Shown: positions 30,652 to 58,251 of the stretch, piece after piece | How the letters are laid out: each line of letters starts with the position of its first letter | How positions within the stretch are numbered: position 1 is the first letter of the stretch | From: a virus | IMG/VR virus record: IMGVR_UViG_3300000970_000001 | Location: 1 to 64,000 of that record | Strand: one strand, 5' to 3' | Length of the DNA stretch: 64,000 bases | Position numbers and translations under genes: made by a program | Notes under the pieces: model-generated | What the model was told of the DNA's origin: nothing | Seen by the model: the letters and a program-made list of their open reading frames with translations, nothing else | Databases searched by the model: none

Positions 30652-31329
30652 ATGAAAAAGAAGAACTCTGTAAACGATGCTCAACGAGCAAACAAAATCA
30701 ATCTCTATCCTAAAAACAATAAACAAAGAGAGTATATAGAAGCCCTTCGAAATCATGACCAAGTATTTGCAATAGGACCTGCAGGAGCAGGTAAAACTTA
30801 TATTCCTACTATAATGGCAACTCAAGCCTATCTACGTGGTGACATCAAAAAGATAATCCTTACACGTCCTGCTGTTGCTGTTCAGGAAGAACATGGATTC
30901 TTACCTGGCTCCATTGACAAAAAGTTAGCCCCGTGGGTGTTACCAGTTACAGAAGTGATTGAGGAAGCCTTAGGTTCTAAACAACGCTTCCTTGACATGC
31001 TCAAGGCAGGTGACCTTGAGGTGGCTCCTTTTACTTATATGAGGGGTAGAACCTTCAAGGATGCCTTTGTCCTATTGGACGAGGCTCAGAACACCACAAA
31101 GGAACAGATGAAGATGTTCTTAACACGATTGGGAGAGAACGCCAAAGTTGTCATCAGTGGTGATATCGAACAGTCTGATATCAGAGCGGGGAGTGGACTA
31201 GCAATGGCTGTTGATCTTATTGACACTCACGATATTCCAGCCGCTAAGGTTGAGTTTAGAAGTAACCATGTGGTTCGTTCAGAATTGTGTAAGATGTGGG
31301 TTGAGGCATTTGAAAAAGGCCCCGATTAA
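30652..31329 (+). CDS. phoH: PhoH-like ATPase
   Basis: 225 aa with Walker A GPAGAGKTY and LLDEAQN; size typical of phage PhoH. Confidence 0.88.
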   Translation: MKKKNSVNDAQRANKINLYPKNNKQREYIEALRNHDQVFAIGPAGAGKTYIPTIMATQAYLRGDIKKIILTRPAVAVQEEHGFLPGSIDKKLAPWVLPVTEVIEEALGSKQRFLDMLKAGDLEVAPFTYMRGRTFKDAFVLLDEAQNTTKEQMKMFLTRLGENAKVVISGDIEQSDIRAGSGLAMAVDLIDTHDIPAAKVEFRSNHVVRSELCKMWVEAFEKGPD

Positions 31330-31342
31330 CGGGACCTTTTAT
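31318..31342. terminator. bidirectional hairpin at the convergence of the plus and minus transcription units
   Basis: GGCCCCG AUUAA CGGGACC with A-run and U-run flanks. It includes the phoH stop codon. Confidence 0.6.
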
Positions 31343-31497
31343 ATTCTTTATCTCGTCCGTTCTGTTGCTAAGTGGATGAATCTCCGAATTAGGCAGCTAG
31401 TGCGTAATCCATATTGCTATTATCATTTGCGATTAAGTAATACTAACATAGTATTTATCTTAAAATCAAGCGTTAATTAATACAATAATATTATTTA

Positions 31498-31574
31498 TGG
31501 TACTAGCGGAAGGATTCGAACCCTCAACCTGCGGAGTAGAAATCCGCTGCTCTAGTCCGTTGAGCTACGCTAGC
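31498..31574 (-). tRNA. tRNA-Arg (anticodon UCU)
   Basis: Hand-folded cloverleaf: acceptor GCUAGCG/CGCUAGU (G1-U72), anticodon stem-loop GCGGA UUUCUAC UCCGC, T-loop UUCGAAU, encoded CCA. Confidence 0.85.
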
Positions 31575-31637
31575 ATGTTGGAGGAAGGCACTGGTCCCGA
31601 TCCAGATGGTACATTTAAACCACGCAATGATTAGCAA

Positions 31638-31991
31638 TCACCCACAGCGACCCCGCTGTTTTACCTTCCATTCAATTCTCTGATACCACATATCATACTT
31701 ATAGGCTAACTTCCAGAGTGAGTTTTTAATTTTCCACAATCGATACTGCCACCCATTATTAATAAAAGCTTCTGTTGACATCTTAGGTACAGGAAACCAA
31801 GGAGGGCCATCTAAGTTACGAATAGGCATCAAGTCATTTGCATCAATGGTTAGAATAAGTTCCAACTCTGTCATACGTTCTTCAGGTGTTAGAGTATACC
31901 AATCTTCTCCTGTAGTTACGTGGAATCTTTTTATTCCTTTAGATTCCAAATGATCTGCTAAATCATCTCTTCTCTGTTCTAGTGTTTTCAT
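31638..31991 (-). CDS. hypothetical protein
   Basis: 117-aa ORF inside the tRNA island with a 4-nt overlap with the upstream ORF. Confidence 0.5.
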   Translation of the reverse strand: MKTLEQRRDDLADHLESKGIKRFHVTTGEDWYTLTPEERMTELELILTIDANDLMPIRNLDGPPWFPVPKMSTEAFINNGWQYRLWKIKNSLWKLAYKYDMWYQRIEWKVKQRGRCG

Positions 31992-32290
31992 ACTAATAGT
32001 CCCATTACGTATCGCGTTTCATTAAGTAACTCTTTTGGTATTCTAACATCTCCATTATGAAATGCTTTTAAAATTAAGTTAGCTGCTTTTTGTAGTCTTT
32101 GTTGATGTCTTATTTCCTCTTTAAAAAACTTACCAACATCAGGTAATTTTTTATATGTATGATATAATTGTTCAGTATTAGCAAACTCTTTTCTAAATAA
32201 TTTTAAGTTGTCTTCGTCTTCTTGAGTAGGACAGTTATAAAAGTTTATTATGTTTCCATAGTGTGTCCTAGTAATTATCATATCAACCAT
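31988..32290 (-). CDS. hypothetical protein
   Basis: 100-aa ORF starting 14 nt downstream of tRNA-Ser. Confidence 0.5.
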   Translation of the reverse strand: MVDMIITRTHYGNIINFYNCPTQEDEDNLKLFRKEFANTEQLYHTYKKLPDVGKFFKEEIRHQQRLQKAANLILKAFHNGDVRIPKELLNETRYVMGLLV

Positions 32291-32304
32291 GTTCTTGCTC
32301 CTAG

Positions 32305-32398
32305 TGGCGGTGGGTTAGGGGATCGAACCCTAAAGGGAGTATTAGTCCTCGCTGGTTTTCAAGACCAGTGCAGTCGCCAGCCATCTGCTTGACCCACC
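32305..32398 (-). tRNA. tRNA-Ser (UGA), long variable arm
   Basis: 94 nt: acceptor GGUGGGU/ACCCACC, anticodon stem-loop CUGGU CUUGAAA ACCAG, T-loop UUCGAUC, G73, CCA. Confidence 0.85.
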
Positions 32399-32406
32399 TT
32401 ATTATA

Positions 32407-32484
32407 TGGCACTACCCGTAGGACTCGAACCTACAACCTTCGGATTCGTAATCCGATGCTCTAGTCCAATTGAGCTAGAGTAGT
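32407..32484 (-). tRNA. tRNA-Arg (ACG)
   Basis: Anticodon stem-loop UCGGA UUACGAA UCCGA, D-arm GCUC AAUUGGACUA GAGC, T-loop UUCGAGU, CCA. Confidence 0.88.
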
Positions 32485-32522
32485 ATATCAAAACTCATTA
32501 TTGATCCGTACTTGTAGATCAA

Positions 32523-32607
32523 TGGTGGGCGGGTGCAGATTCGAACTACTCCCCCGAAGAGAAAGGCTTTACAGGCCTCGTGCTAGAACCACTAGCTTTA
32601 CCCACCC
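32523..32607 (-). tRNA. tRNA-Tyr (GUA), long variable arm
   Basis: 85 nt: acceptor GGGUGGG/CCCGCCC, anticodon stem-loop GAGGC CUGUAAA GCCUU, CCA. One mismatch at the base of the T-stem. Confidence 0.8.
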
Positions 32608-32612
32608 ATTAT

Positions 32613-32689
32613 TGGGTTGTGTGATGGGATTCGAACCCACAGCCTGATCGATCACACCGATCTGCTCTAACCGTTGAGCTACACACAAC
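32613..32689 (-). tRNA. tRNA-His (GUG) with encoded G-1
   Basis: An extra 5' G pairs with C73, the His hallmark. Anticodon stem-loop GAUCG GUGUGAU CGAUC, CCA. Confidence 0.88.
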
Positions 32690-32696
32690 ATATTTT

Positions 32697-32771
32697 TGGC
32701 GAACGTGAAGGGGATTGAACCCTCATCTTCTTCCTCGACAGGGAAGCGCATTACCAGTCTGCCACACGTTC
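32697..32771 (-). tRNA. tRNA-Asp (GUC)
   Basis: Acceptor GAACGUG/CACGUUC, anticodon stem-loop CUUCC CUGUCGA GGAAG, T-loop UUCAAUC, CCA. Confidence 0.88.
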
Positions 32772-32919
32772 TAATCTAATTTTTAATTTTTGTCTAGTAC
32801 CACTCTTTGTTTTACCTAAGTTAATATTTCTTTTGTAGTACTGACAACATCTACACCACTTATGCTTTTTACCCCTCTTTATGTTTATCATAGATTTCAT
32901 AGTTATTCTCCTTAAAATT

Positions 32920-32994
32920 TGGTGCTAGATGAAAGACTCGAACTCTCAATTCCTGATTACAAAACAGGCGTGTTGCCATTAACACTAAACTAGC
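32920..32994 (-). tRNA. tRNA-Thr (UGU)
   Basis: Anticodon loop UUUGUAA, T-loop UUCGAGU, CCA. One U-U mismatch in each of the acceptor and anticodon stems. Confidence 0.75.
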
Positions 32995-32995
32995 A

Positions 32996-33070
32996 TGGTG
33001 GCCGCACGAAGACTCGAACTTCAATCCTACCCATTATGAGTGGGCAGCTCTACCCCTGAGCTATACGGCT
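32996..33070 (-). tRNA. tRNA with CAU anticodon (Met, initiator-like or Ile2; undecided)
   Basis: Anticodon stem-loop GCCCA CUCAUAA UGGGU. Positions 1:72 are unpaired (A-C), an initiator-like trait, but the 29-31 GGG signature is absent. CCA encoded. Confidence 0.75.
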
Positions 33071-33076
33071 TTAATT

Positions 33077-33151
33077 TGGTATCAGAAACTGGATTCGAAC
33101 CAATATCTTCTAGCTTATGAGACTAGCGCTTTTCCGTTAAGCTATCCTGAT
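33077..33151 (-). tRNA. tRNA with CAU anticodon (Met or Ile2; undecided)
   Basis: Acceptor AUCAGGA/UUCUGAU, anticodon stem-loop CUAGU CUCAUAA GCUAG, T-loop UUCGAAU, CCA. Confidence 0.8.
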
Positions 33152-33599
33152 GTGTTTTATTTCTCCTTATACAGGAAATAGTTGAATGGGAAACATTAAA
33201 TAGTTTACCGATTTCTGTATTATTAATCCCTTCTTTTATCAACTGTCTTACTTTAATTAAATCTGATTGAGTTAATTTACTATTGTTATTCTTAGTTCCT
33301 GTTTGTATTGATCCAAGTCTATTTTTATTTGCTGCGTCTACCATATTATCTTTAGGAGTACCATCAAACAAATGATTAGGATTAACACATTTTGGATTGT
33401 CACACTTATGACAACAAAACTCTTTTGGAAAAACTTTATGTTTTAAGTAAAAAGAATATCTGTGGGCATAGTGTATACCTCTACCTATTTTTCTACGTTT
33501 TACTACACCATACCCGTGGTTATTTAAAGCTCCTAACCATTGCCAGCATTCATTTTCTTTACCTATTTTAACCTTATCCCAGAATAAATTATCTTTCAT
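33123..33599 (-). CDS. HNH homing endonuclease
   Basis: Carries CWQWLGALNNHGYG...YAHRYSF...CHKCDNPKCVNPNHL plus a C-terminal HTH-like NTEIGKLFNVSHSTIS. The last 9 codons and the stop lie inside the tRNA at 33077-33151. Confidence 0.88.
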   Translation of the reverse strand: MKDNLFWDKVKIGKENECWQWLGALNNHGYGVVKRRKIGRGIHYAHRYSFYLKHKVFPKEFCCHKCDNPKCVNPNHLFDGTPKDNMVDAANKNRLGSIQTGTKNNNSKLTQSDLIKVRQLIKEGINNTEIGKLFNVSHSTISCIRRNKTHQDSLTEKR

Positions 33600-33616
33600 T
33601 TTTGTACCTTCTTAAT

Positions 33617-33691
33617 TGGTGCAGGAACAGATGATCGAAATCTGAACTCAAGTTTGGAAGACTTGCACGTTGCCACTTACGCCATTCCTGC
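33617..33691 (-). tRNA. tRNA-Gly (UCC)
   Basis: Acceptor GCAGGAA/UUCCUGC, anticodon stem-loop CAAGU CUUCCAA ACUUG, T-arm CAGAU UUCGAUC AUCUG, CCA. Confidence 0.85.
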
Positions 33692-33700
33692 ACTTAGTAT

Positions 33701-33776
33701 TGGTGGAACCCCTAGGAATCTAACCCAATCCTTCTGGTCTTCAATCAGATGTGCGCAACAGCTACACCAGAGTTCC
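33701..33776 (-). tRNA. tRNA-Phe (GAA), atypical T-loop
   Basis: Anticodon loop UUGAAGA, A31-C39 mismatch, T-loop UUAGAUU (A56), D-loop AGCUGUUGC (G18 U19), CCA. Confidence 0.65.
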
Positions 33777-33782
33777 GTTATT

Positions 33783-33860
33783 TGGCTGGAGTAATTGGAT
33801 TCGAACCAATCTTCATCTCGGTTAACAGCCGAGTGCATTCGCCTAGAATACTATACTCCA
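33783..33860 (-). tRNA. tRNA-Asn (GUU)
   Basis: Acceptor UGGAGUA/UACUCCA, anticodon stem-loop CUCGG CUGUUAA CCGAG, T-loop UUCGAAU, CCA. Confidence 0.88.
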
Positions 33861-33864
33861 AAAT

Positions 33865-33898
33865 TAAAAAACCCTCCTCAAGTACTTCTTGGGAGGGT
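33865..33898 (-). terminator. intrinsic terminator A, abutting the tRNA-Asn 5' end
   Basis: Minus-strand RNA ACCCUCC CAAGAAGUACUUGA GGAGGGU followed by UUUUUUAAUUUU. tRNA-Asn begins right after the U-tract. Confidence 0.75.
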
Positions 33899-33924
33899 GA
33901 AAATAAATAAACATACTTAATTGT

Positions 33925-33981
33925 TTACATACAACGACCCTCATCACCGCTTCTTCCAAAGCCGCGTGTCGAATAATTCAT
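33925..33981 (-). CDS. leader peptide ORF A (MNYSTRGFGRSGDEGRCM), putative attenuator leader
   Basis: 18 codons, starting 16 nt after the receiver-gene stop. 16 of 18 residues belong to the specificities of the downstream tRNA block. GAGGGU (33937-33942) is complementary to the terminator 5' arm ACCCUC. Confidence 0.55.
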   Translation of the reverse strand: MNYSTRGFGRSGDEGRCM

Positions 33982-33997
33982 ATCTGTATGTATACAG

Positions 33998-34336
33998 TTA
34001 AACATTTTCTTTAATCCAGTTTAGAACTTTCTGTTCAAGTTCTGATTTATCTACCATTTGATCCTGTGGTAGGTACAGGTTATTCATGTATAGTAACCCA
34101 GATGTAATTATAAAGTCAACTTCTTTTTTAACTTTAGGTCTAAGATCATCATAAATGGCTTTACCGTTTTCGTTTGATAGGTTTATATCTAATATTATAA
34201 GATCGTATTTGTCTATACTTATGGTAAAACCGTCATAATCACCAACAGTATGTATTTCTATTTCACAATCCTTTAACTTTTCTCTTAGTAATATACGTTC
34301 AGTAGGACAATCGTCAATATATAGAATGTGTTTCAT
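33998..34336 (-). CDS. stand-alone CheY-like receiver domain protein
   Basis: 112 aa from ATG 34336; the longer track ORF runs over two tRNA genes. Sequence MKHILYIDDCP...DLIILDINLSNENG...DFIITSG...VDK carries the acidic pair, phospho-acceptor Asp, Thr/Ser and Lys positions of receiver domains. Confidence 0.6.
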   Translation of the reverse strand: MKHILYIDDCPTERILLREKLKDCEIEIHTVGDYDGFTISIDKYDLIILDINLSNENGKAIYDDLRPKVKKEVDFIITSGLLYMNNLYLPQDQMVDKSELEQKVLNWIKENV

Positions 34337-34359
34337 TCCAGTATAGTAACATATAATAA

Positions 34360-34436
34360 TGGTACACGCCACAGGAATTGAACCTGTCTTAAAGAGGATG
34401 TAAACCTCCCGCTTAACGCCAGTCAGCCAGACGTGT
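34360..34436 (-). tRNA. tRNA-Val (UAC)
   Basis: Acceptor ACACGUC/GGCGUGU, anticodon stem-loop GGAGG UUUACAU CCUCU, T-loop UUCAAUU, CCA. Confidence 0.85.
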
Positions 34437-34442
34437 CTAAAT

Positions 34443-34518
34443 TGGTGGAACCTGTGGGAATCAAACCCACCGCAGTCTGCTTGCAAAGCAGTCTCGCCCT
34501 CTTGGAACATGAGGCCCC
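34443..34518 (-). tRNA. tRNA-Ala (UGC), atypical D-arm and T-loop
   Basis: 76 nt: acceptor GGGGCCU/AGGUUCC with G3-U70, anticodon loop UUUGCAA, T-loop UUUGAUU (U56). The D-arm folds only as GUUC/GGGC with a short loop. CCA encoded. Confidence 0.65.
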
Positions 34519-34524
34519 TTAAAC

Positions 34525-34601
34525 TGGAGATCGCGGTGGGATTCGAACCCACATACTTCTGGGTAAAAACCAGACGTAACAGCCAGTTGTACTACGCGAT
34601 C
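34525..34601 (-). tRNA. tRNA-Lys (UUU)
   Basis: Acceptor GAUCGCG/CGCGAUC, anticodon stem-loop UCUGG UUUUUAC CCAGA, T-loop UUCGAAU, CCA. Confidence 0.85.
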
Positions 34602-34602
34602 T

Positions 34603-34678
34603 TGGTTGTCGATGAAGGATTCGAACCTTCAACCTGCCCCTAATCAGGGGGCTGCACTACCAGTTGTGCTAATCGACA
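34603..34678 (-). tRNA. tRNA-Ile (GAU)
   Basis: Acceptor UGUCGAU/AUCGACA, anticodon stem-loop GCCCC CUGAUUA GGGGC, T-loop UUCGAAU, CCA. Confidence 0.88.
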
Positions 34679-34679
34679 A

Positions 34680-34705
34680 TAAAAAACCCACCTAAAAGGT
34701 GGGTC
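34680..34705 (-). terminator. intrinsic terminator B, abutting the tRNA-Ile 5' end
   Basis: Minus-strand RNA ACCCACC UUUUA GGUGGGU followed by UUUUUUAU. Confidence 0.75.
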
Positions 34706-34737
34706 TAGAATTCTTTTTCTTAAACATACGAAAAGAT

Positions 34738-34800
34738 TCAGCCCACCCCTCTGGTGTCTGCTTTAATCTTAATCGCTACAATGTTGTTTTGCTCTCGCAT
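34738..34800 (-). CDS. leader peptide ORF B (MREQNNIVAIKIKADTRGVG), putative attenuator leader
   Basis: 20 codons with GAGG upstream. Residues 7-14 (IVAIKIKA) use only the four specificities of the tRNAs that follow (Ile, Lys, Ala, Val). The last codons GGGGUGGGC (34741-34749) copy the terminator 3' arm and can pair with its 5' arm. Confidence 0.6.
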   Translation of the reverse strand: MREQNNIVAIKIKADTRGVG

Positions 34801-34820
34801 TTTCTCTATTTCCTCTAACT

Positions 34821-34897
34821 TGGAAGGGCTAACGGGATTCGAACCCGCGTCTACCAATTGAAAGTCGGTATGTCCTTGACCACTAGACGATAGCCCC
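34821..34897 (-). tRNA. tRNA-Glu (UUC)
   Basis: Anticodon stem-loop ACCGA CUUUCAA UUGGU, D-arm GUCUAGUGGUCAAGGAC, T-loop UUCGAAU, G1-U72, CCA. Confidence 0.85.
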
Positions 34898-34929
34898 ATT
34901 AAGTTAGTTTGGTGCTTATCGTTAGGATT

Positions 34930-34959
34930 AATATAACCTAGTTAATATAGGTATGTCAA
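34930..34959 (-). promoter_or_regulatory. sigma70-type promoter TTGACA-N18-TATATT facing tRNA-Glu
   Basis: The exact -35 consensus (plus 34954-34959 TGTCAA) and a 5/6 -10 (plus 34930-34935 AATATA) lie about 30 nt upstream of the tRNA-Glu 5' end. Confidence 0.55.
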
Positions 34960-34973
34960 CTTCTTTATTTAAT

Positions 34974-35047
34974 TGGCACAGGAACAAGGAATCAAACCTC
35001 AGTCTGCGGGGTTGGAAGCCGCCGTGTTATCACTACACTATTCCTGC
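34974..35047 (-). tRNA. tRNA-Trp (CCA), atypical D/T loops
   Basis: 74 nt: anticodon loop UUCCAAC with a C31-C39 mismatch, D-loop AGUGAUA (G18 A19), T-loop UUUGAUU (U56), CCA. Confidence 0.7.
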
Positions 35048-35048
35048 A

Positions 35049-35126
35049 TGGTTGGAGAGGTGGGGTTCGAACCCACATTGCACCCGTTCAAAGCGGGTAG
35101 CCTTACCAACTGTTGGCTACTCTCCA
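35049..35126 (-). tRNA. tRNA-Gln (UUG)
   Basis: U1-A72, anticodon stem-loop ACCCG CUUUGAA CGGGU, T-loop UUCGAAC, CCA. Confidence 0.88.
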
Positions 35127-35129
35127 TAA

Positions 35130-35206
35130 TGGTGCTCCCCCTCAGATTCGAACTGAGACTGTACCGCTTCTAAGGCGGCTCCCTCTGCCAGTTGGGGTAG
35201 AGGAGC
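35130..35206 (-). tRNA. tRNA with Leu anticodon UAG but a short (5-nt) variable loop
   Basis: 77 nt: acceptor GCUCCUC/GGGGAGC, anticodon stem-loop GCCGC CUUAGAA GCGGU, variable ACAGU, T-arm CUCAG UUCGAAU CUGAG, A73, CCA. Confidence 0.7.
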
Positions 35207-35214
35207 GTTATAAT

Positions 35215-35292
35215 TGGTCGGGTGGGCAAGATTCGAACTTGCGATACTCGGCCTCCAAAGCCGATAACTTGACCAGACTAGTTCACCACCCG
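35215..35292 (-). tRNA. tRNA-Pro (UGG)
   Basis: C1-G72, acceptor CGGGUGG/CCACCCG, anticodon stem-loop UCGGC UUUGGAG GCCGA, CCA. Confidence 0.88.
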
Positions 35293-35369
35293 TGGTACTC
35301 TCAGTCAGATTCGAACTGACACTGTGGGGATTTTAAGTCCCCTGCCTCTTCCAGTTGGGCTATGAGAGC
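35293..35369 (-). tRNA. tRNA with Leu anticodon UAA but a short (5-nt) variable loop
   Basis: 77 nt: acceptor GCUCUCA/UGAGAGU, anticodon stem-loop GGGGA CUUAAAA UCCCC, variable ACAGU, T-arm GUCAG UUCGAAU CUGAC, A73, CCA. It is a paralogue of the UAG tRNA. Confidence 0.7.
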
Positions 35370-35370
35370 T

Positions 35371-35410
35371 TAATACAAAAAGCCCCTCTATCTTGCGATT
35401 AGGGGCTTTT
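35371..35410 (-). terminator. intrinsic terminator C, abutting the first tRNA of the island
   Basis: Minus-strand RNA AAAAGCCCCU A AUC GCAA GAU AG AGGGGCUUUU UGUAUU, a 7-bp GC stem plus an inner GNRA-capped stem. Confidence 0.75.
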
Positions 35411-35439
35411 AAATTCTTTTGAACTTACTTAGACATACC

Positions 35440-35496
35440 TCAACGCTGTTCTCCTAAAGGGAGCAATTGTTGCAGTTGTGGTAACCAGTTGTTCAT
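35440..35496 (-). CDS. leader peptide ORF C (MNNWLPQLQQLLPLGEQR), putative attenuator leader
   Basis: 18 codons, starting 14 nt after the stop of the 105-aa gene. Residues 4-14 (WLPQLQQLLPL) use only Trp, Leu, Pro and Gln, exactly the specificities of the five tRNAs that follow. Confidence 0.6.
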   Translation of the reverse strand: MNNWLPQLQQLLPLGEQR

Positions 35497-35510
35497 AGTG
35501 TTAATATAGT

Positions 35511-35828
35511 CTATTCTTTGTTGTTTGTCAAATTTAAAAATTCTTCAGGAGTCATTTCAGTAGCAAGAAACTTATTTTCCTTGGTTATATACTGAACAGG
35601 TTCGATTATCTGACTGTCTATGTCAAGATATGCAACGTACCTTAGTATCTTATCCTCATCATTGACAGTTGGTGATTCTATTAAAGCTTTACATGGTGAA
35701 AACAACCAGTATCCATTATCTCCATATTTAGAAGAAAACACATACGTGAAGTCTTCATTAGGTATAATATGAAGAATCTTTACTGATTCATAAGATTCTT
35801 CTGATCCAAGTATAAATTTTTTAGTCAT
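35511..35828 (-). CDS. hypothetical protein
   Basis: 105-aa ORF with RBS AGAGGA. It lies downstream of the tRNA-like RNA and upstream of leader C. Confidence 0.55.
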   Translation of the reverse strand: MTKKFILGSEESYESVKILHIIPNEDFTYVFSSKYGDNGYWLFSPCKALIESPTVNDEDKILRYVAYLDIDSQIIEPVQYITKENKFLATEMTPEEFLNLTNNKE

Positions 35829-35878
35829 AGTTAGTCCTCTGTGGTTTAAGAGTTAAAAGTTAAAGTTACTCAGTAAAT

Positions 35879-35940
35879 TGGTGGAGCCGCTCGGTATTGC
35901 ACCGAGGTCCAGACTAAGCTGTCGATCCTATTTCGGCCCC
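35879..35940 (-). ncRNA. 62-nt tmRNA tRNA-like-domain (TLD)-like RNA lacking an mRNA-like domain
   Basis: Sequence: GGGGCCG AAAUA GGAUCGAC AGCUUAGUCU GGAC CUCGG UGCAAUA CCGAG CGGCUCC ACCA. It has a 7-bp acceptor stem with G3-U70, a T-arm, A73 and encoded CCA. GGAUCGAC and GGAC match tmRNA 5'/3' end motifs (E. coli GGAUUCGAC ... GGAC). Confidence 0.55.
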
Positions 35941-36084
35941 GAATAAGTGAAGAGGGAGAGGTTGGGATACTACTCTCATAGACCATGACCAAATACCTTT
36001 TGATTTACTGATCTAACCTATCGTTACTCTCATGTAGAGTAGCAGTGTCCCGCCCGATAGTACCTTATAACCTTTGGTAAGCTA

Positions 36085-36321
36085 TTATTCAGCCACCTCT
36101 TCATCTGGTATGCCTACCAGATATTCTAATAATTCTCTTGCTTTAAACTCATAAATGTCATACAGGCCATACTCTCGTATTTTTAAACCTGTTACTGATC
36201 CTATTTGAGTTGCGATTACATTAGCATATACTCTTGGGTATCGCAACTCAATAATAGGATTTTTTGGATTAATTTTAATCGCTTCCTGACATGTTTCTTT
36301 TAACCCTCGCAAGCGATACAT
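36085..36321 (-). CDS. hypothetical protein
   Basis: 78-aa ORF overlapping the nrdA 3' end by 22 nt. Confidence 0.45.
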   Translation of the reverse strand: MYRLRGLKETCQEAIKINPKNPIIELRYPRVYANVIATQIGSVTGLKIREYGLYDIYEFKARELLEYLVGIPDEEVAE

Positions 36322-37973
36322 CCTTCGTTCTTAGCACGTTCACGCATAAACGCTTGAGCCTCACTTAAGGAGTACTGGTAGTAAAGGGTTTTAAGACCTA
36401 GTTCCCAAGCTGTAAAGTATAGTCTATTGATCTCTCGCGTTGGCATTTGAGGGTCAACCATAATATTAATTGATTGACCTTGGTCAATATAGGGCTGACG
36501 TACTGCTGCCTGATTCAAAATTGCTTCAGGATCAATCTCATATATAGTTTTAAATACTTGTTTTTCTTGATCTGTAAGGAAGTCAAGATGTTGTACTGAA
36601 CCGTCTTGTGCTCTGATTGATAACCATACTTCTTTAGTATTCTGGTTATGACGTTCAAGCACTGGTACAAGATAAGGATTCTTCCAAGTCATTTTATCTT
36701 TGGCACAGTCCTTAACATAGTAATTAGAAAACTCTGGTTCAATTGACATTGATACCTGTCCTAAAATGTATGAAGACGACTTAGTTGGAGCCACCGCTAA
36801 TAAAGTGGTGTTTCTACGACCTTTACCTTTTAGTAACTTAGGTTCACCGAATATTTCTGCAAGTTTTCCACTTGCCTTATATGCATCGTTGTTAATCTTT
36901 TTAAAGATTTCTAAGTTTAACTTAGCAGCTTCTCTACTCTCAAATGGTATTTCATTTTTAAGAAGGTAGGCATGCCATCCAAGTACACCTACTCCAAGTG
37001 CTCTGTGTTCTTTAGCAAACTTACGTACACGTCTCATGAGGTACTGAATTTCCTCATTCATTTCGTCAATTCTCTCTAAGAACTCTGTCACAACTGAGTC
37101 TAAGAACATAGTGAGAACTTCGACAGCATCTGTGTTTTTCCATTCATCATACTCCGAGATATTCATTGAGGATAAAACACACACAAAAGATTCATCGGGC
37201 GAGGATGGTAACGCGATTTCCGTACACATATTTGATGCGTTAATTTTCATGTTATTTTCTTTATAAACATCTACAGTATCTCGGTTCACTGTATCAGTAA
37301 AGAAGATGTACGGTACACCTTTCTCTGATCGGACGCGTAGAACTTCTGCCCAACGGTCCTGTGCTTCTTCATCACCATCACGAACTCTGTTCATGAAGTC
37401 ATCTGATACACAAACACCGTGTTTAGTGTTTTGAATTGTGTGTTCTTCTGTTCCGATTTTAACGAAGTCATAAAAATCTCCGTGATCTATATCTATGTAA
37501 GGAGAGAATTGACCTCGTCTTACTGATCCTTGAGACACTACGTTAGCCACTTTGTCAAACATACCCATAAAGTGTACGGCTCCAAATGACTCCCCATTAT
37601 TGGAAATCGCTGCACCACGAGGGCGTAACTTACCAAAGTAACCTGATGTACCGCCGCCAAACTTAGACAACATTCCTACTTCAGCAGCCGTAAACAAAAT
37701 GTTTTCCATGTTGTCACTAATGTCTGAGTTAAAGCAGGACACTGGTAAACCTCTTGTGGTTGCATAATTTGACCACACAGGAGAGGACAATGAGTAAAAC
37801 CCACGCGACATGTAGTCGTAGAATTTATCTCCTATACCTTCGATACCATTGATCCCTTGAAATCTATCAGCAATCACTCGAACACGCTCGGGCACGGTCT
37901 GGCCCTCAGCTAGATAATCTCTTTGAATAAATTTTTGTGAGTGTTCGTTCACCCAATTAAAGTTTGTATACAT
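36300..37973 (-). CDS. nrdA: ribonucleotide reductase large subunit, class I, without an ATP-cone
   Basis: 557 aa with GGGTSGYFGKLRPRGA, the active-site NMCTEIALPS and a C-terminal CIACEG Cys pair. Its start abuts the nrdB stop. Confidence 0.9.
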   Translation of the reverse strand: MYTNFNWVNEHSQKFIQRDYLAEGQTVPERVRVIADRFQGINGIEGIGDKFYDYMSRGFYSLSSPVWSNYATTRGLPVSCFNSDISDNMENILFTAAEVGMLSKFGGGTSGYFGKLRPRGAAISNNGESFGAVHFMGMFDKVANVVSQGSVRRGQFSPYIDIDHGDFYDFVKIGTEEHTIQNTKHGVCVSDDFMNRVRDGDEEAQDRWAEVLRVRSEKGVPYIFFTDTVNRDTVDVYKENNMKINASNMCTEIALPSSPDESFVCVLSSMNISEYDEWKNTDAVEVLTMFLDSVVTEFLERIDEMNEEIQYLMRRVRKFAKEHRALGVGVLGWHAYLLKNEIPFESREAAKLNLEIFKKINNDAYKASGKLAEIFGEPKLLKGKGRRNTTLLAVAPTKSSSYILGQVSMSIEPEFSNYYVKDCAKDKMTWKNPYLVPVLERHNQNTKEVWLSIRAQDGSVQHLDFLTDQEKQVFKTIYEIDPEAILNQAAVRQPYIDQGQSINIMVDPQMPTREINRLYFTAWELGLKTLYYQYSLSEAQAFMRERAKNEGCIACEG

Positions 37974-57090: not shown

Positions 57091-58251
57091 TCAATCTTTA
57101 TAGGGGTCCTTGGTGTCAGCGGAAGCCATACATACAATCAATGGCGTTAGTCTAGTTTCTACTACCACAGAATCCTTGTGGTATTCAAGCACTTCATCTA
57201 ATTTTTTGTAACACGCAGGTGCTTCATCAGCTCCTGCTCCAAACAAATGTACCCCTGCTGTTCGCATTTCATTGCGCATTTCGTCTTCGTCAACGAGACC
57301 CTTGGTGATCTGTACACCACGTTTCCACTTTCCCTTTGCCTGAGTGCGAGATAGTTCTCGACCTGCTCCATGTACTGTTGAATACATGTTCTCTTTAGCA
57401 GCTGGAGTATCCAGTCCTCGTACGATAACAGACTGGTCAGACATTGTTGATCCAATGAATGATCTCTGATCTGGAAAGGCTGGTGTTGAACCTTTACGCA
57501 CGACAAAGTAGTTTTCTCCGTCGTGCTCTTCCTTCCACGCAAAGTTGTGGTGGTTGTGGACGACATCAAGGTACTCGGAATTTCCTTGTATGATTTCAGC
57601 CACTGTTTTACAAACCCACTCTCTTCCAGCGTAAGCATACTCACCTCCTAATGTCATTGCTTCAAAATAAGCTTCTCCAATATCACTATCCATATCGACA
57701 AGGCATGGATCAGCGTCCATACCTGATCTGGCTCCCAGTGTTTTTAAGAAGTGTGTAGTAGCTTTATGACCTAGACCACGAGAACCAAAGTGAACTCCAA
57801 TCCATACAAAGTAGTCATCATCATAGAATACATCTACGTAATGGTTACCTGAACCTACCGTACCTAATTGGTTAGCGGCTAAGTCTTTCAAACCTTTTAG
57901 TGCTTCGTTTTCCCAGTTGGCATTTGTATCAAGGAATCCACATTCAACTGGGAGTGGATTCGTTCTTCCCATACCAAAGGAGATTGTTTCCGAGATTTTC
58001 TTCCCGATTTCATACCAGTCGGCAACTTCAAAAGCCTTGATAGGGAGTTTAACAGCCATATTACCACAAGCAATATCAAAACCAACACCAGAAATGCTAA
58101 TCTTATCACGATAAGCAGCCACTCCACCAATAGGATGGCCGTATCCCAAATGACCATCAGCACAGAGTATGAACTTGTCAGCACCCATTGATAGACAGTT
58201 TTTAGCTTGTTGAATAGTATTTTCATCGTGCTTTCCGATTATTTTTAACAT
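57091..58251 (-). CDS. rtcB: RtcB-type RNA ligase
   Basis: Carries GYGHPIGGVAAY, GSGNHYVDV, HFGSRGLGH and HNHHNFA; 386 aa. Confidence 0.9.
   Translation of the reverse strand: MLKIIGKHDENTIQQAKNCLSMGADKFILCADGHLGYGHPIGGVAAYRDKISISGVGFDIACGNMAVKLPIKAFEVADWYEIGKKISETISFGMGRTNPLPVECGFLDTNANWENEALKGLKDLAANQLGTVGSGNHYVDVFYDDDYFVWIGVHFGSRGLGHKATTHFLKTLGARSGMDADPCLVDMDSDIGEAYFEAMTLGGEYAYAGREWVCKTVAEIIQGNSEYLDVVHNHHNFAWKEEHDGENYFVVRKGSTPAFPDQRSFIGSTMSDQSVIVRGLDTPAAKENMYSTVHGAGRELSRTQAKGKWKRGVQITKGLVDEDEMRNEMRTAGVHLFGAGADEAPACYKKLDEVLEYHKDSVVVETRLTPLIVCMASADTKDPYKD

Follow-up and report, generated by a model that had tools for sequence, protein, structure and literature searches.

On the minus strand of a 64,000-nt stretch of viral DNA (positions 1 to 64,000 of IMG/VR record IMGVR_UViG_3300000970_000001, hereafter the window) we found a 62-nt RNA gene with the sequence and predicted fold of a transfer-messenger RNA (tmRNA) tRNA-like domain (TLD) and, 4.4 kb away on the same strand with a tRNA array in between, a tag reading frame set in the mRNA-like domain (MLD) of a tmRNA. 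Both halves are present, intact and of the alphaproteobacterial (alpha) type, and the order of TLD followed by MLD recurs in other viral contigs; the TLD is closed upon itself and has no partner strand in the MLD. Our favoured reading of these sequences, to which we give about even confidence, is that the TLD is the tRNA-like half of a split alphaproteobacterial-type phage tmRNA whose two halves are encoded as separate genes. A 2025 database paper distinguishes standard, intron-containing and permuted tmRNA genes (PMC11915505), and the layout described here matches none of these three forms. Although TLD-only tmRNAs are already known, an unlinked pair of TLD and MLD appears to be undescribed, and our literature searches returned no account of a closed TLD accompanied by an unlinked MLD.

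Read directly, the minus strand of the element is GGGGCCG AAAUA GGAUCGAC AGCUUAGUCU GGAC CUCGG UGCAAUA CCGAG CGGCUCC ACCA, letter for letter as transcribed in the first-pass annotation of this DNA, which had taken it for a tmRNA TLD with G3-U70, A73, an encoded CCA and the motifs GGAUCGAC and GGAC, and without an anticodon arm. Sequence, fold and alignment to the Rfam tmRNA family RF00023 (clan CL00001) all bear this identification out, and the element is a tmRNA-type TLD, not an ordinary tRNA: it carries the identity set for alanyl-tRNA synthetase (G3-U70, A73 and CCA) and lacks an anticodon arm, and the alignment places a tandem G.A at the opening of helix P2a and GGAC before the T-arm. What had been put forward as a possible 3-bp stub corresponds in the alignment to a P2a of three Watson-Crick pairs followed by a 6-nt loop (interior of P2, 10 nt). 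The minimum-free-energy fold (-22.7 kcal/mol, z = -1.98) consists of the acceptor stem with its G3-U70 pair, the T-arm and this small stub. In a sensitive Rfam scan RF00023 spanned the element end to end (model positions 1-374) at 40.2 bits (E = 2.1e-14 for a 1-kb search), which falls below the gathering score of 47 because the 318-nt model interior is missing, 6 nt standing in its place. At gathering thresholds Rfam returns no match at this position and ARAGORN makes no call.

The P2 loop of the TLD holds neither the tag frame nor the pseudoknots of a one-piece tmRNA, and the earlier statement that there is no mRNA-like domain is correct for the element itself but not for the genome, in which ANDNSNMDYALAA is encoded on the same strand. 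At 62 nt the element has the size of TLD-only tmRNAs that lack a coding sequence (CDS-less, approximately 60-65 nt), from which it is set apart by the presence of this tag frame in the genome. An independent assembly (Logan SRR2835671) is identical across positions 35268-36519, and the TLD locus is therefore not an assembly artefact. We also considered an attP-type (phage attachment site) fragment of a host ssrA gene, which we rejected as both halves of the TLD are present and mutually paired; no integrase was found among the 30 open reading frames (ORFs) of the window that were scanned against PHROGs.

The alpha-type character of the TLD is apparent from its first 22 nt, which recur unchanged at the start of the coding piece in permuted, two-piece tmRNA genes from roseophages (DSS3_MAL1, annotated ssrA). 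The consensus of the Rfam family RF01849 reads GGGGgCGAAAuAGGAUCGAC, with GGAC-CCGGG-GGCgGUA-CCCGG-CGcCUCC-ACCA as its acceptor piece. For comparison we used a set of classical viral alpha-type genes comprising 80 distinct genes among the matches listed (within L054-L173); U70 is present in all 80. The two halves of the TLD match those of such genes at 21/22 and 27-30/34 positions, and P2 has the same start (AG/CU). The G at T-loop position 55, which the annotation had treated as an anomaly lowering confidence, proved to be nothing of the kind, xGCRxxx T-loops being the norm for alphaproteobacterial-type tmRNAs (RF01849 and the 80 viral genes) and the exact loop UGCAAUA recurring in two classical genes (L089 and L147). 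T-loop positions 54 and 58 are G/G in 49 and U/A in 31 of the classical genes, and G/G in 9 and U/A in 3 of the 12 closed TLDs described below, never mixed in either set; this strict coupling fits a conserved tertiary pair in a T-loop in which G replaces pseudouridine-55. Since the 8-nt GGAUCGAC and G55 both occur in RF01849 and in the viral genes, we read them as an alpha-type signature and not as defects.

Along the minus strand the locus runs from ribonucleotide reductase (RNR) genes through a manA-like RNA, the TLD, ORF105 and approximately 21 tRNAs to the MLD and a terminator, and the tag frame starts 67 nt past the last tRNA of the array. Its codons (GCA AAU GAU AAU AGC AAU AUG GAU UAC GCA CUA GCU GCC UAA) are preceded by neither a start codon nor a Shine-Dalgarno sequence. 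The frame, at 31389-31430, is the sole match to the tag pattern on either strand of the 64 kb, and 60 Markov simulations of the window gave 0 matches. RF04321 matched the MLD region at 28.2 bits (E = 6e-4), short of its gathering score of 47. The resume codon GCA directly follows UAAUC, placing U at -5 and A at -4, in agreement with the classical genes, where A occupies -4 in 80/80 and U occupies -5 in 73/80. This context, an ANDN...LAA tag and a post-tag GCAACAGAA hairpin together mark the MLD as alpha-type. The alpha-tmRNA motif GCAACAGAA itself lies at 31360-31368 within that hairpin, which aligns with the classical MLDs of roseophage and Pseudaminobacter and whose loop ACUUAGCAACAGAA is identical in three classical genes (L158, L119 and L151). 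A leader hairpin stands at the place that pseudoknot PK1 takes in classical tmRNA, from which we infer a PK1-like role. The intrinsic terminator beyond the MLD, which was not flagged by a consensus scanner, closes the tRNA/MLD transcription unit and faces phoH convergently.

Permuted alpha-type tmRNA genes, which are known from marine phages (PMC9004378) and from Alphaproteobacteria and are represented by RF01849, RF04321, DSS3_MAL1 and Melnitz, resemble this pair in the sequence GGGGxxGAAAUAGGAUCGAC, the xGCRxxx T-loop, the AG/CU start of P2, the ANDN...LAA tag, a UAAAU-like resume context, the GCAACAGAA hairpin and the position of the 3' half of the TLD upstream of the tag. They differ in that their 5' acceptor strand leads the coding piece and their acceptor stem and P2 join two RNAs, whereas in the window the 5' strand stands before the T-arm, the TLD is self-closed and the MLD is left without a strand to pair with. 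In 80/80 of the classical viral genes a 5' acceptor strand of perfect complementarity is found between CCA and tag, and in 0/80 upstream of the T-arm. Conversely, neither a second 5' acceptor strand nor GGAUCGAC was found between CCA and tag in the window or at six other closed loci, which rules out a classical permuted gene; at none of these seven loci does an acceptor piece precede a coding piece led by a 5' strand, and the TLD pairs with itself where the acceptor stem and P2 of permuted genes pair two molecules. One of these loci, L033, keeps an apparent decayed relic of the old 5' strand, GGAUGUGAAAU, which suggests that the arrangement arose from a permuted gene whose 5' strand was moved. 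Next to the permuted tmRNA of DSS3_MAL1 we also observed a GOLLD RNA (L017 2400-2726, 125 bits, cut at the search edge), directly upstream of the tmRNA and within a tRNA cluster.

Pattern scans of viral and metagenomic contigs yielded 12 closed alpha-type TLDs including that of the window, the others being 69-82 nt in length (L001, L004/L009, L005, L012 to L016, L020/L036, L021 and L033). Many columns of their alignment were preset by the search patterns, so that invariance there proves nothing and only the free columns are informative. When acceptor positions 1-7 and 66-72 were left free, 8 matches in viral contigs (6 distinct sequences) had full stems, each with 7/7 acceptor pairs, 5/5 T-stem pairs and G3-U70 (8/8), and the remaining 18 matches formed <=4 acceptor pairs. 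In the alignment of all 12 closed TLDs paired cells make up 97.8%, and 8/15 pairs vary on both sides; their covariation score of 0.584 compares with 0.06-0.14 when partners were slid, and 0/500 shuffles reached it (n = 12). Applied to the genomes of 185,579 species of Bacteria and Archaea, the same pattern detected no closed TLD and returned only chance matches and one classical permuted gene, and blastn did not find the closed TLD-MLD layout in cultured phages. Closed TLDs with canonical, non-alpha T-loops were seen as well (L003 and L008; 76 and 65.7 bits, above the Rfam threshold), and approximately 2 kb from each lies a Pistol ribozyme (L003 5916-6012, minus strand, 50.7 bits; L008 10682-10769, plus strand, 62.2 bits).

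Downstream Rfam matches at L012 and L033 prompted a search for tag frames, and one was found downstream of the TLD and on the same strand at 7/12 loci, at distances of +40 to +4450 nt (Table 1). A start codon is present in none of these closed-locus frames. The modular arrangement of the window recurs at L015, where an array of 14 tRNAs is headed by the TLD and its first tRNA is followed by the tag frame. Between L004 and L005 the TLD, resume region, frame, tag end and terminator are kept (the terminator with compensatory changes), whereas the spacer from CCA to MLD and the middle of the tag are heavily diverged, a pattern that we read as selection by which the MLD is maintained. No promoter was found between TLD and MLD in L004, L005 and L012 at consensus thresholds, and the conserved upstream region suggests that TLD and MLD are co-transcribed in these three.

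Table 1. Features of the TLD and MLD halves in the window, with the tag frames of the other closed-TLD loci (asterisk, stop codon)
Feature	Position	Strand	Basis or location
Closed TLD RNA gene, 62 nt	35879..35940	minus	direct read, RF00023 alignment, fold, family covariation
TLD acceptor stem, 7 bp, including G3-U70	35934-35940 x 35883-35889	minus	
TLD linker AAAUA, then D-loop analogue GGAUCGAC	within 35879..35940	minus	
TLD P2a stub G.A, A.G, C-G, A-U, G-C, capped by loop CUUAGU; GGAC next		minus	
TLD T-arm, 5 bp, loop UGCAAUA	35890-35906	minus	
TLD discriminator A73 and encoded CCA	35879-35882	minus	
tRNA array, ~21 genes	31498..35369	minus	ARAGORN 19, Rfam 1, tRNA-Ala-like element
Leader hairpin AAUACUA-UGU-UAGUAUU, ends 9 nt before resume codon	31439..31455	minus	fold of 31312-31497
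MLD tag frame ANDNSNMDYALAA*	31389..31430	minus	pattern match, RF04321, resume context
Post-tag hairpin CAUCC / GGACG, loop ACUUAGCAACAGAAC	31354..31378	minus	sequence
Intrinsic terminator GGUCCCG-UUAAU-CGGGGCC + UUUUU	31313..31336	minus	read and fold
L012 tag frame DNDNARPLAIAA			downstream of TLD, same strand
L004/L009 tag frame ANDNSQAQSWHPPQRLAA			downstream of TLD, same strand
L005 tag frame ANDNQPGMAQHPLQRLAA			downstream of TLD, same strand
L033 tag frame ANDNTNMLSLAA			downstream of TLD, same strand
L015 tag frame ANDNDFADLRLAA			after first tRNA of 14-tRNA array headed by TLD
L020/L036 tag frame ANTNERMNYKVAA			downstream of TLD, same strand

Several observations weigh against a tmRNA whose separately encoded halves work together. 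No tag frame was found near L014, L016 and L001 (1.4-3.2 kb flanks) or near L013 and L021 (374 and 97 nt flanks), and at these five loci the TLD may be used alone. Duplexes between TLD and MLD were no better for cognate than for non-cognate or shuffled pairs, with whole RNAs as well as with the TLD interior alone. The conserved order of the halves could be mere inheritance from a permuted ancestor; L033 keeps its decayed 5'-strand relic. To our knowledge the halves are physically joined in every tmRNA that has been studied, two-piece molecules included, and the use of a free MLD is unprecedented. No close relative of the phage, in which conservation within its own lineage might be followed, turned up in any collection searched. 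The window covers 64 of the contig's 77.8 kb, with 13.7 kb lying beyond it.

Some features of the loci without a detected tag frame were recorded by eye. The long TLD interiors of L016 (6629-6658), L013 and L001 all contain a motif, YUAAAK, similar to UAAAU, the resume context in classical MLDs, and a 5-codon frame is possible in the interior of L001, not in those of L016 or L013. Stop codons or mini-ORFs in TLD interiors were also considered as a shared feature and rejected as inconsistent across members (again by eye). Directly 3' of the L016 TLD an ORF on the plus strand, from 6712, starts MSKIIMTVGIPGSGKSTWA and carries a P-loop kinase motif, which would make its product polynucleotide kinase-like.

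The loci without a tag frame and the absence of TLD-MLD pairing are what would be expected if the TLD acted by itself as a decoy or inhibitor, binding SmpB and possibly alanyl-tRNA synthetase (AlaRS) and EF-Tu and so blocking or diverting host trans-translation, with the tag frame irrelevant or vestigial. The annotation had offered a decoy or AlaRS sink as its own reading, and the idea has a published basis: a TLD-only tmRNA has been recorded in DS6A, a Mycobacterium phage (tmRNA Website ID 11587; Mao et al. 2009, cited in Hudson et al. 2014, PMC4131195), a TLD-only molecule is stated to be a strong inhibitor of tmRNA whether or not it can be charged, perhaps through SmpB titration (Hudson et al. 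2014, PMC4131195), and the DS6A form is reported to inhibit endogenous tmRNA in E. coli (PMC11915505). DS6A is comparable to the window in that the phage RNA has little beyond the TLD, in the proposed SmpB titration and in the RtcB-like ligase found in both phages; it differs in that its RNA is reported without a coding part, whereas the window has a tag frame 4.4 kb downstream. The DS6A TLD was not located in JN698994 by model R1, by regular expression or by ARAGORN. We consider this account unlikely all the same. An intact MLD with all conserved features lies on the same strand and in the same module, and likewise in six other lineages, the pattern of selection between L004 and L005 speaks for a maintained MLD, and approximately 21 tRNAs look like an investment in sustaining translation rather than in blocking rescue. 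A pure decoy or AlaRS sink is thus less likely than a split tmRNA because of the canonical tag frame on the same strand.

On its own the TLD might also act in rescue without a tag, in which case alanine-charged TLD and SmpB would add one or several alanines to the stalled chain, host factors would release it and the MLD would be uninvolved. SmpB and a TLD fragment make polyalanine in vitro without a template (Shimizu and Ueda 2006, as described in PMC3929946), and CDS-less tmRNAs exist in Mallomonadaceae plastids, at approximately 65 nt, and in mitochondrial forms where SmpB is retained (PMC11915505). These organellar molecules are, like the TLD of the window, natural RNAs reduced to the TLD, but they do not belong to the alpha-phage type, and none is reported to have a separate tag frame. 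Tag-less rescue leaves the retained tag frames and resume contexts at 7/12 loci unexplained, and we regard it as improbable.

A manA-like RNA (RF01745; 35947-36122, minus strand; 47.6 bits against a gathering score of 55.2, E 7e-11) closely follows the RNR genes downstream, and its 3' end is 6 nt before G1 of the TLD. This family consists of marine and cyanophage motifs without an assigned function which, according to a 2026 preprint, form RNA cages. The TLD and MLD could be debris of a rearranged permuted gene and serve at most as an RNase P signal, at which cleavage would release the manA-like RNA upstream or the mRNA downstream. Besides the 6-nt spacing, the relic at L033 agrees with this explanation in showing rearrangement from a permuted gene. 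We nevertheless judge it very improbable: all identity elements have stayed intact across 12 copies that have diverged and show compensatory changes, G3-U70 is present in every unbiased full-stem match, the MLD features are intact, and no manA RNA was reported beside the other closed TLDs in Rfam scans.

The window further encodes an RtcB-like tRNA-splicing or repair ligase (57091-58251, minus strand; phrog_1075, E 8e-66), and this opens the prospect of joining at the RNA level, whereby a ligase of the RtcB type or some other activity would link TLD and MLD, for instance by insertion of the MLD into an opened P2a loop, and so restore a conventional tmRNA with linked halves. DS6A, the only phage with a published TLD-only tmRNA, also possesses an RtcB (gp76, 26% identical to that of the window), which may be chance or may hint that RNAs are joined or repaired. 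RtcB is usually taken to act in tRNA repair, which counts against joining. Moreover, no endonuclease site or splice-like motif was seen, and the ends left by normal tRNA processing (5'-phosphate and 3'-OH) are not RtcB substrates. We give joining very little probability.

Within the tRNA array several further features were noted. A tRNA at 33704-33776 (minus strand) was scored by Rfam at 43.1 bits and missed by ARAGORN. The separate tRNA-Ala(UGC) that the annotation had placed at 34443-34518 (minus strand) does have G3-U70, G4-U69 and the anticodon loop UUUGCAA, but its D-arm is deviant, ARAGORN makes no call, no Rfam match reaches gathering level and the best score within the tRNA clan is 18 bits. 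A 158-aa ORF (33123-33599, minus strand), whose matches to HNH_3 and helix-turn-helix are weak, probably encodes a homing endonuclease. Near-consensus sigma-70-like promoters (10-11/12) are found at 35531-35503, 34959-34930 and 34317-34290, and a terminator-like hairpin at 34706-34684 (all minus strand). With three promoters and one terminator-like hairpin inside it, the array probably comprises several transcription units, and the TLD need not share a transcript with the MLD. The ORFs flanking the TLD had no Pfam or PHROG match, homologues of ORF105 were found only within the same phage, and tblastn with an E. coli SmpB query detected no SmpB in the window.

As judged from its proteins, the phage has only a distant relationship with Achromobacter phage JWF and Caulobacter phage Seuss, the nearest relatives being Seuss/JWF-like phages with 53% identity in the major capsid protein and approximately 45% in the large terminase. 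Caulobacter phage Seuss has no tRNA array at the corresponding position. Megablast of positions 35000-37000 against GenBank phages returned nothing, and an RNR-based search for the locus in IMG/VR gave a 22%-identical match at best.

Returning to the split tmRNA that we favour, G3-U70 and A73 are enough for recognition by AlaRS, in minihelices as elsewhere, and RNase P accepts stacks of acceptor and T-stem. From established tmRNA biology, RNase P would mature G1 of the TLD, whose CCA is encoded in the genome, and host AlaRS would charge it through G3-U70 and A73 as it does alanine minihelices. The TLD binds SmpB and EF-Tu (PMC3929946), TLD and SmpB are active on ribosomes in the absence of the MLD and accept the peptide, and one SmpB forms a bridge from the TLD to U-5 in the MLD (both in the review of Himeno et al. 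2014, PMC3929946). The TLD fragment crystallised with SmpB, made of the 5' 25 nt and 3' 34 nt of Thermus thermophilus tmRNA linked by UUCG, is of nearly the same size as the TLD of the window, and such engineered fragments share with it an acceptor stem, D-loop analogue, short capped P2a and T-arm, bind both SmpB and EF-Tu and show activity on ribosomes (PMC3929946); they are laboratory constructs, whereas the TLD of the window is a natural gene. Host SmpB and EF-Tu would accordingly bring the alanine-charged TLD to the empty A site of a stalled ribosome, where it would accept the nascent chain. In the weakest step of the proposal, the free MLD RNA would load into the vacant mRNA channel after translocation, positioned by SmpB through recognition of the conserved UAAUC upstream of the GCA resume codon; ANDNSNMDYALAA would then be added and translation would terminate at the stop codon of the MLD. 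In this way the phage would provide its own ribosome rescue and tagging beside its set of tRNAs.

More tentatively still, we propose that such loci could represent a fourth form of phage tmRNA, in which the halves are separate, unpaired RNAs and the template is supplied in trans via SmpB, by leaderless-like loading or after joining by RtcB. The tether between the two halves is assumed to deliver the tag template to the ribosome. If the proposal is true, physical linkage of TLD and MLD is not required for trans-translation. ARAGORN missed the TLD and Rfam at gathering scores missed both halves, and a sub-threshold tmRNA match on a TLD would pass for a truncated gene, so such systems are probably under-counted in phage genomes. 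In the window and at least six other viral lineages a self-closed TLD is accompanied by an intact tag template that is a separate gene. If the two RNAs cooperate, the tether can be dispensed with, and whether SmpB recruits a free template could be tested directly using two small RNAs; otherwise these phages use a natural minimal TLD RNA either for rescue or for inhibition.

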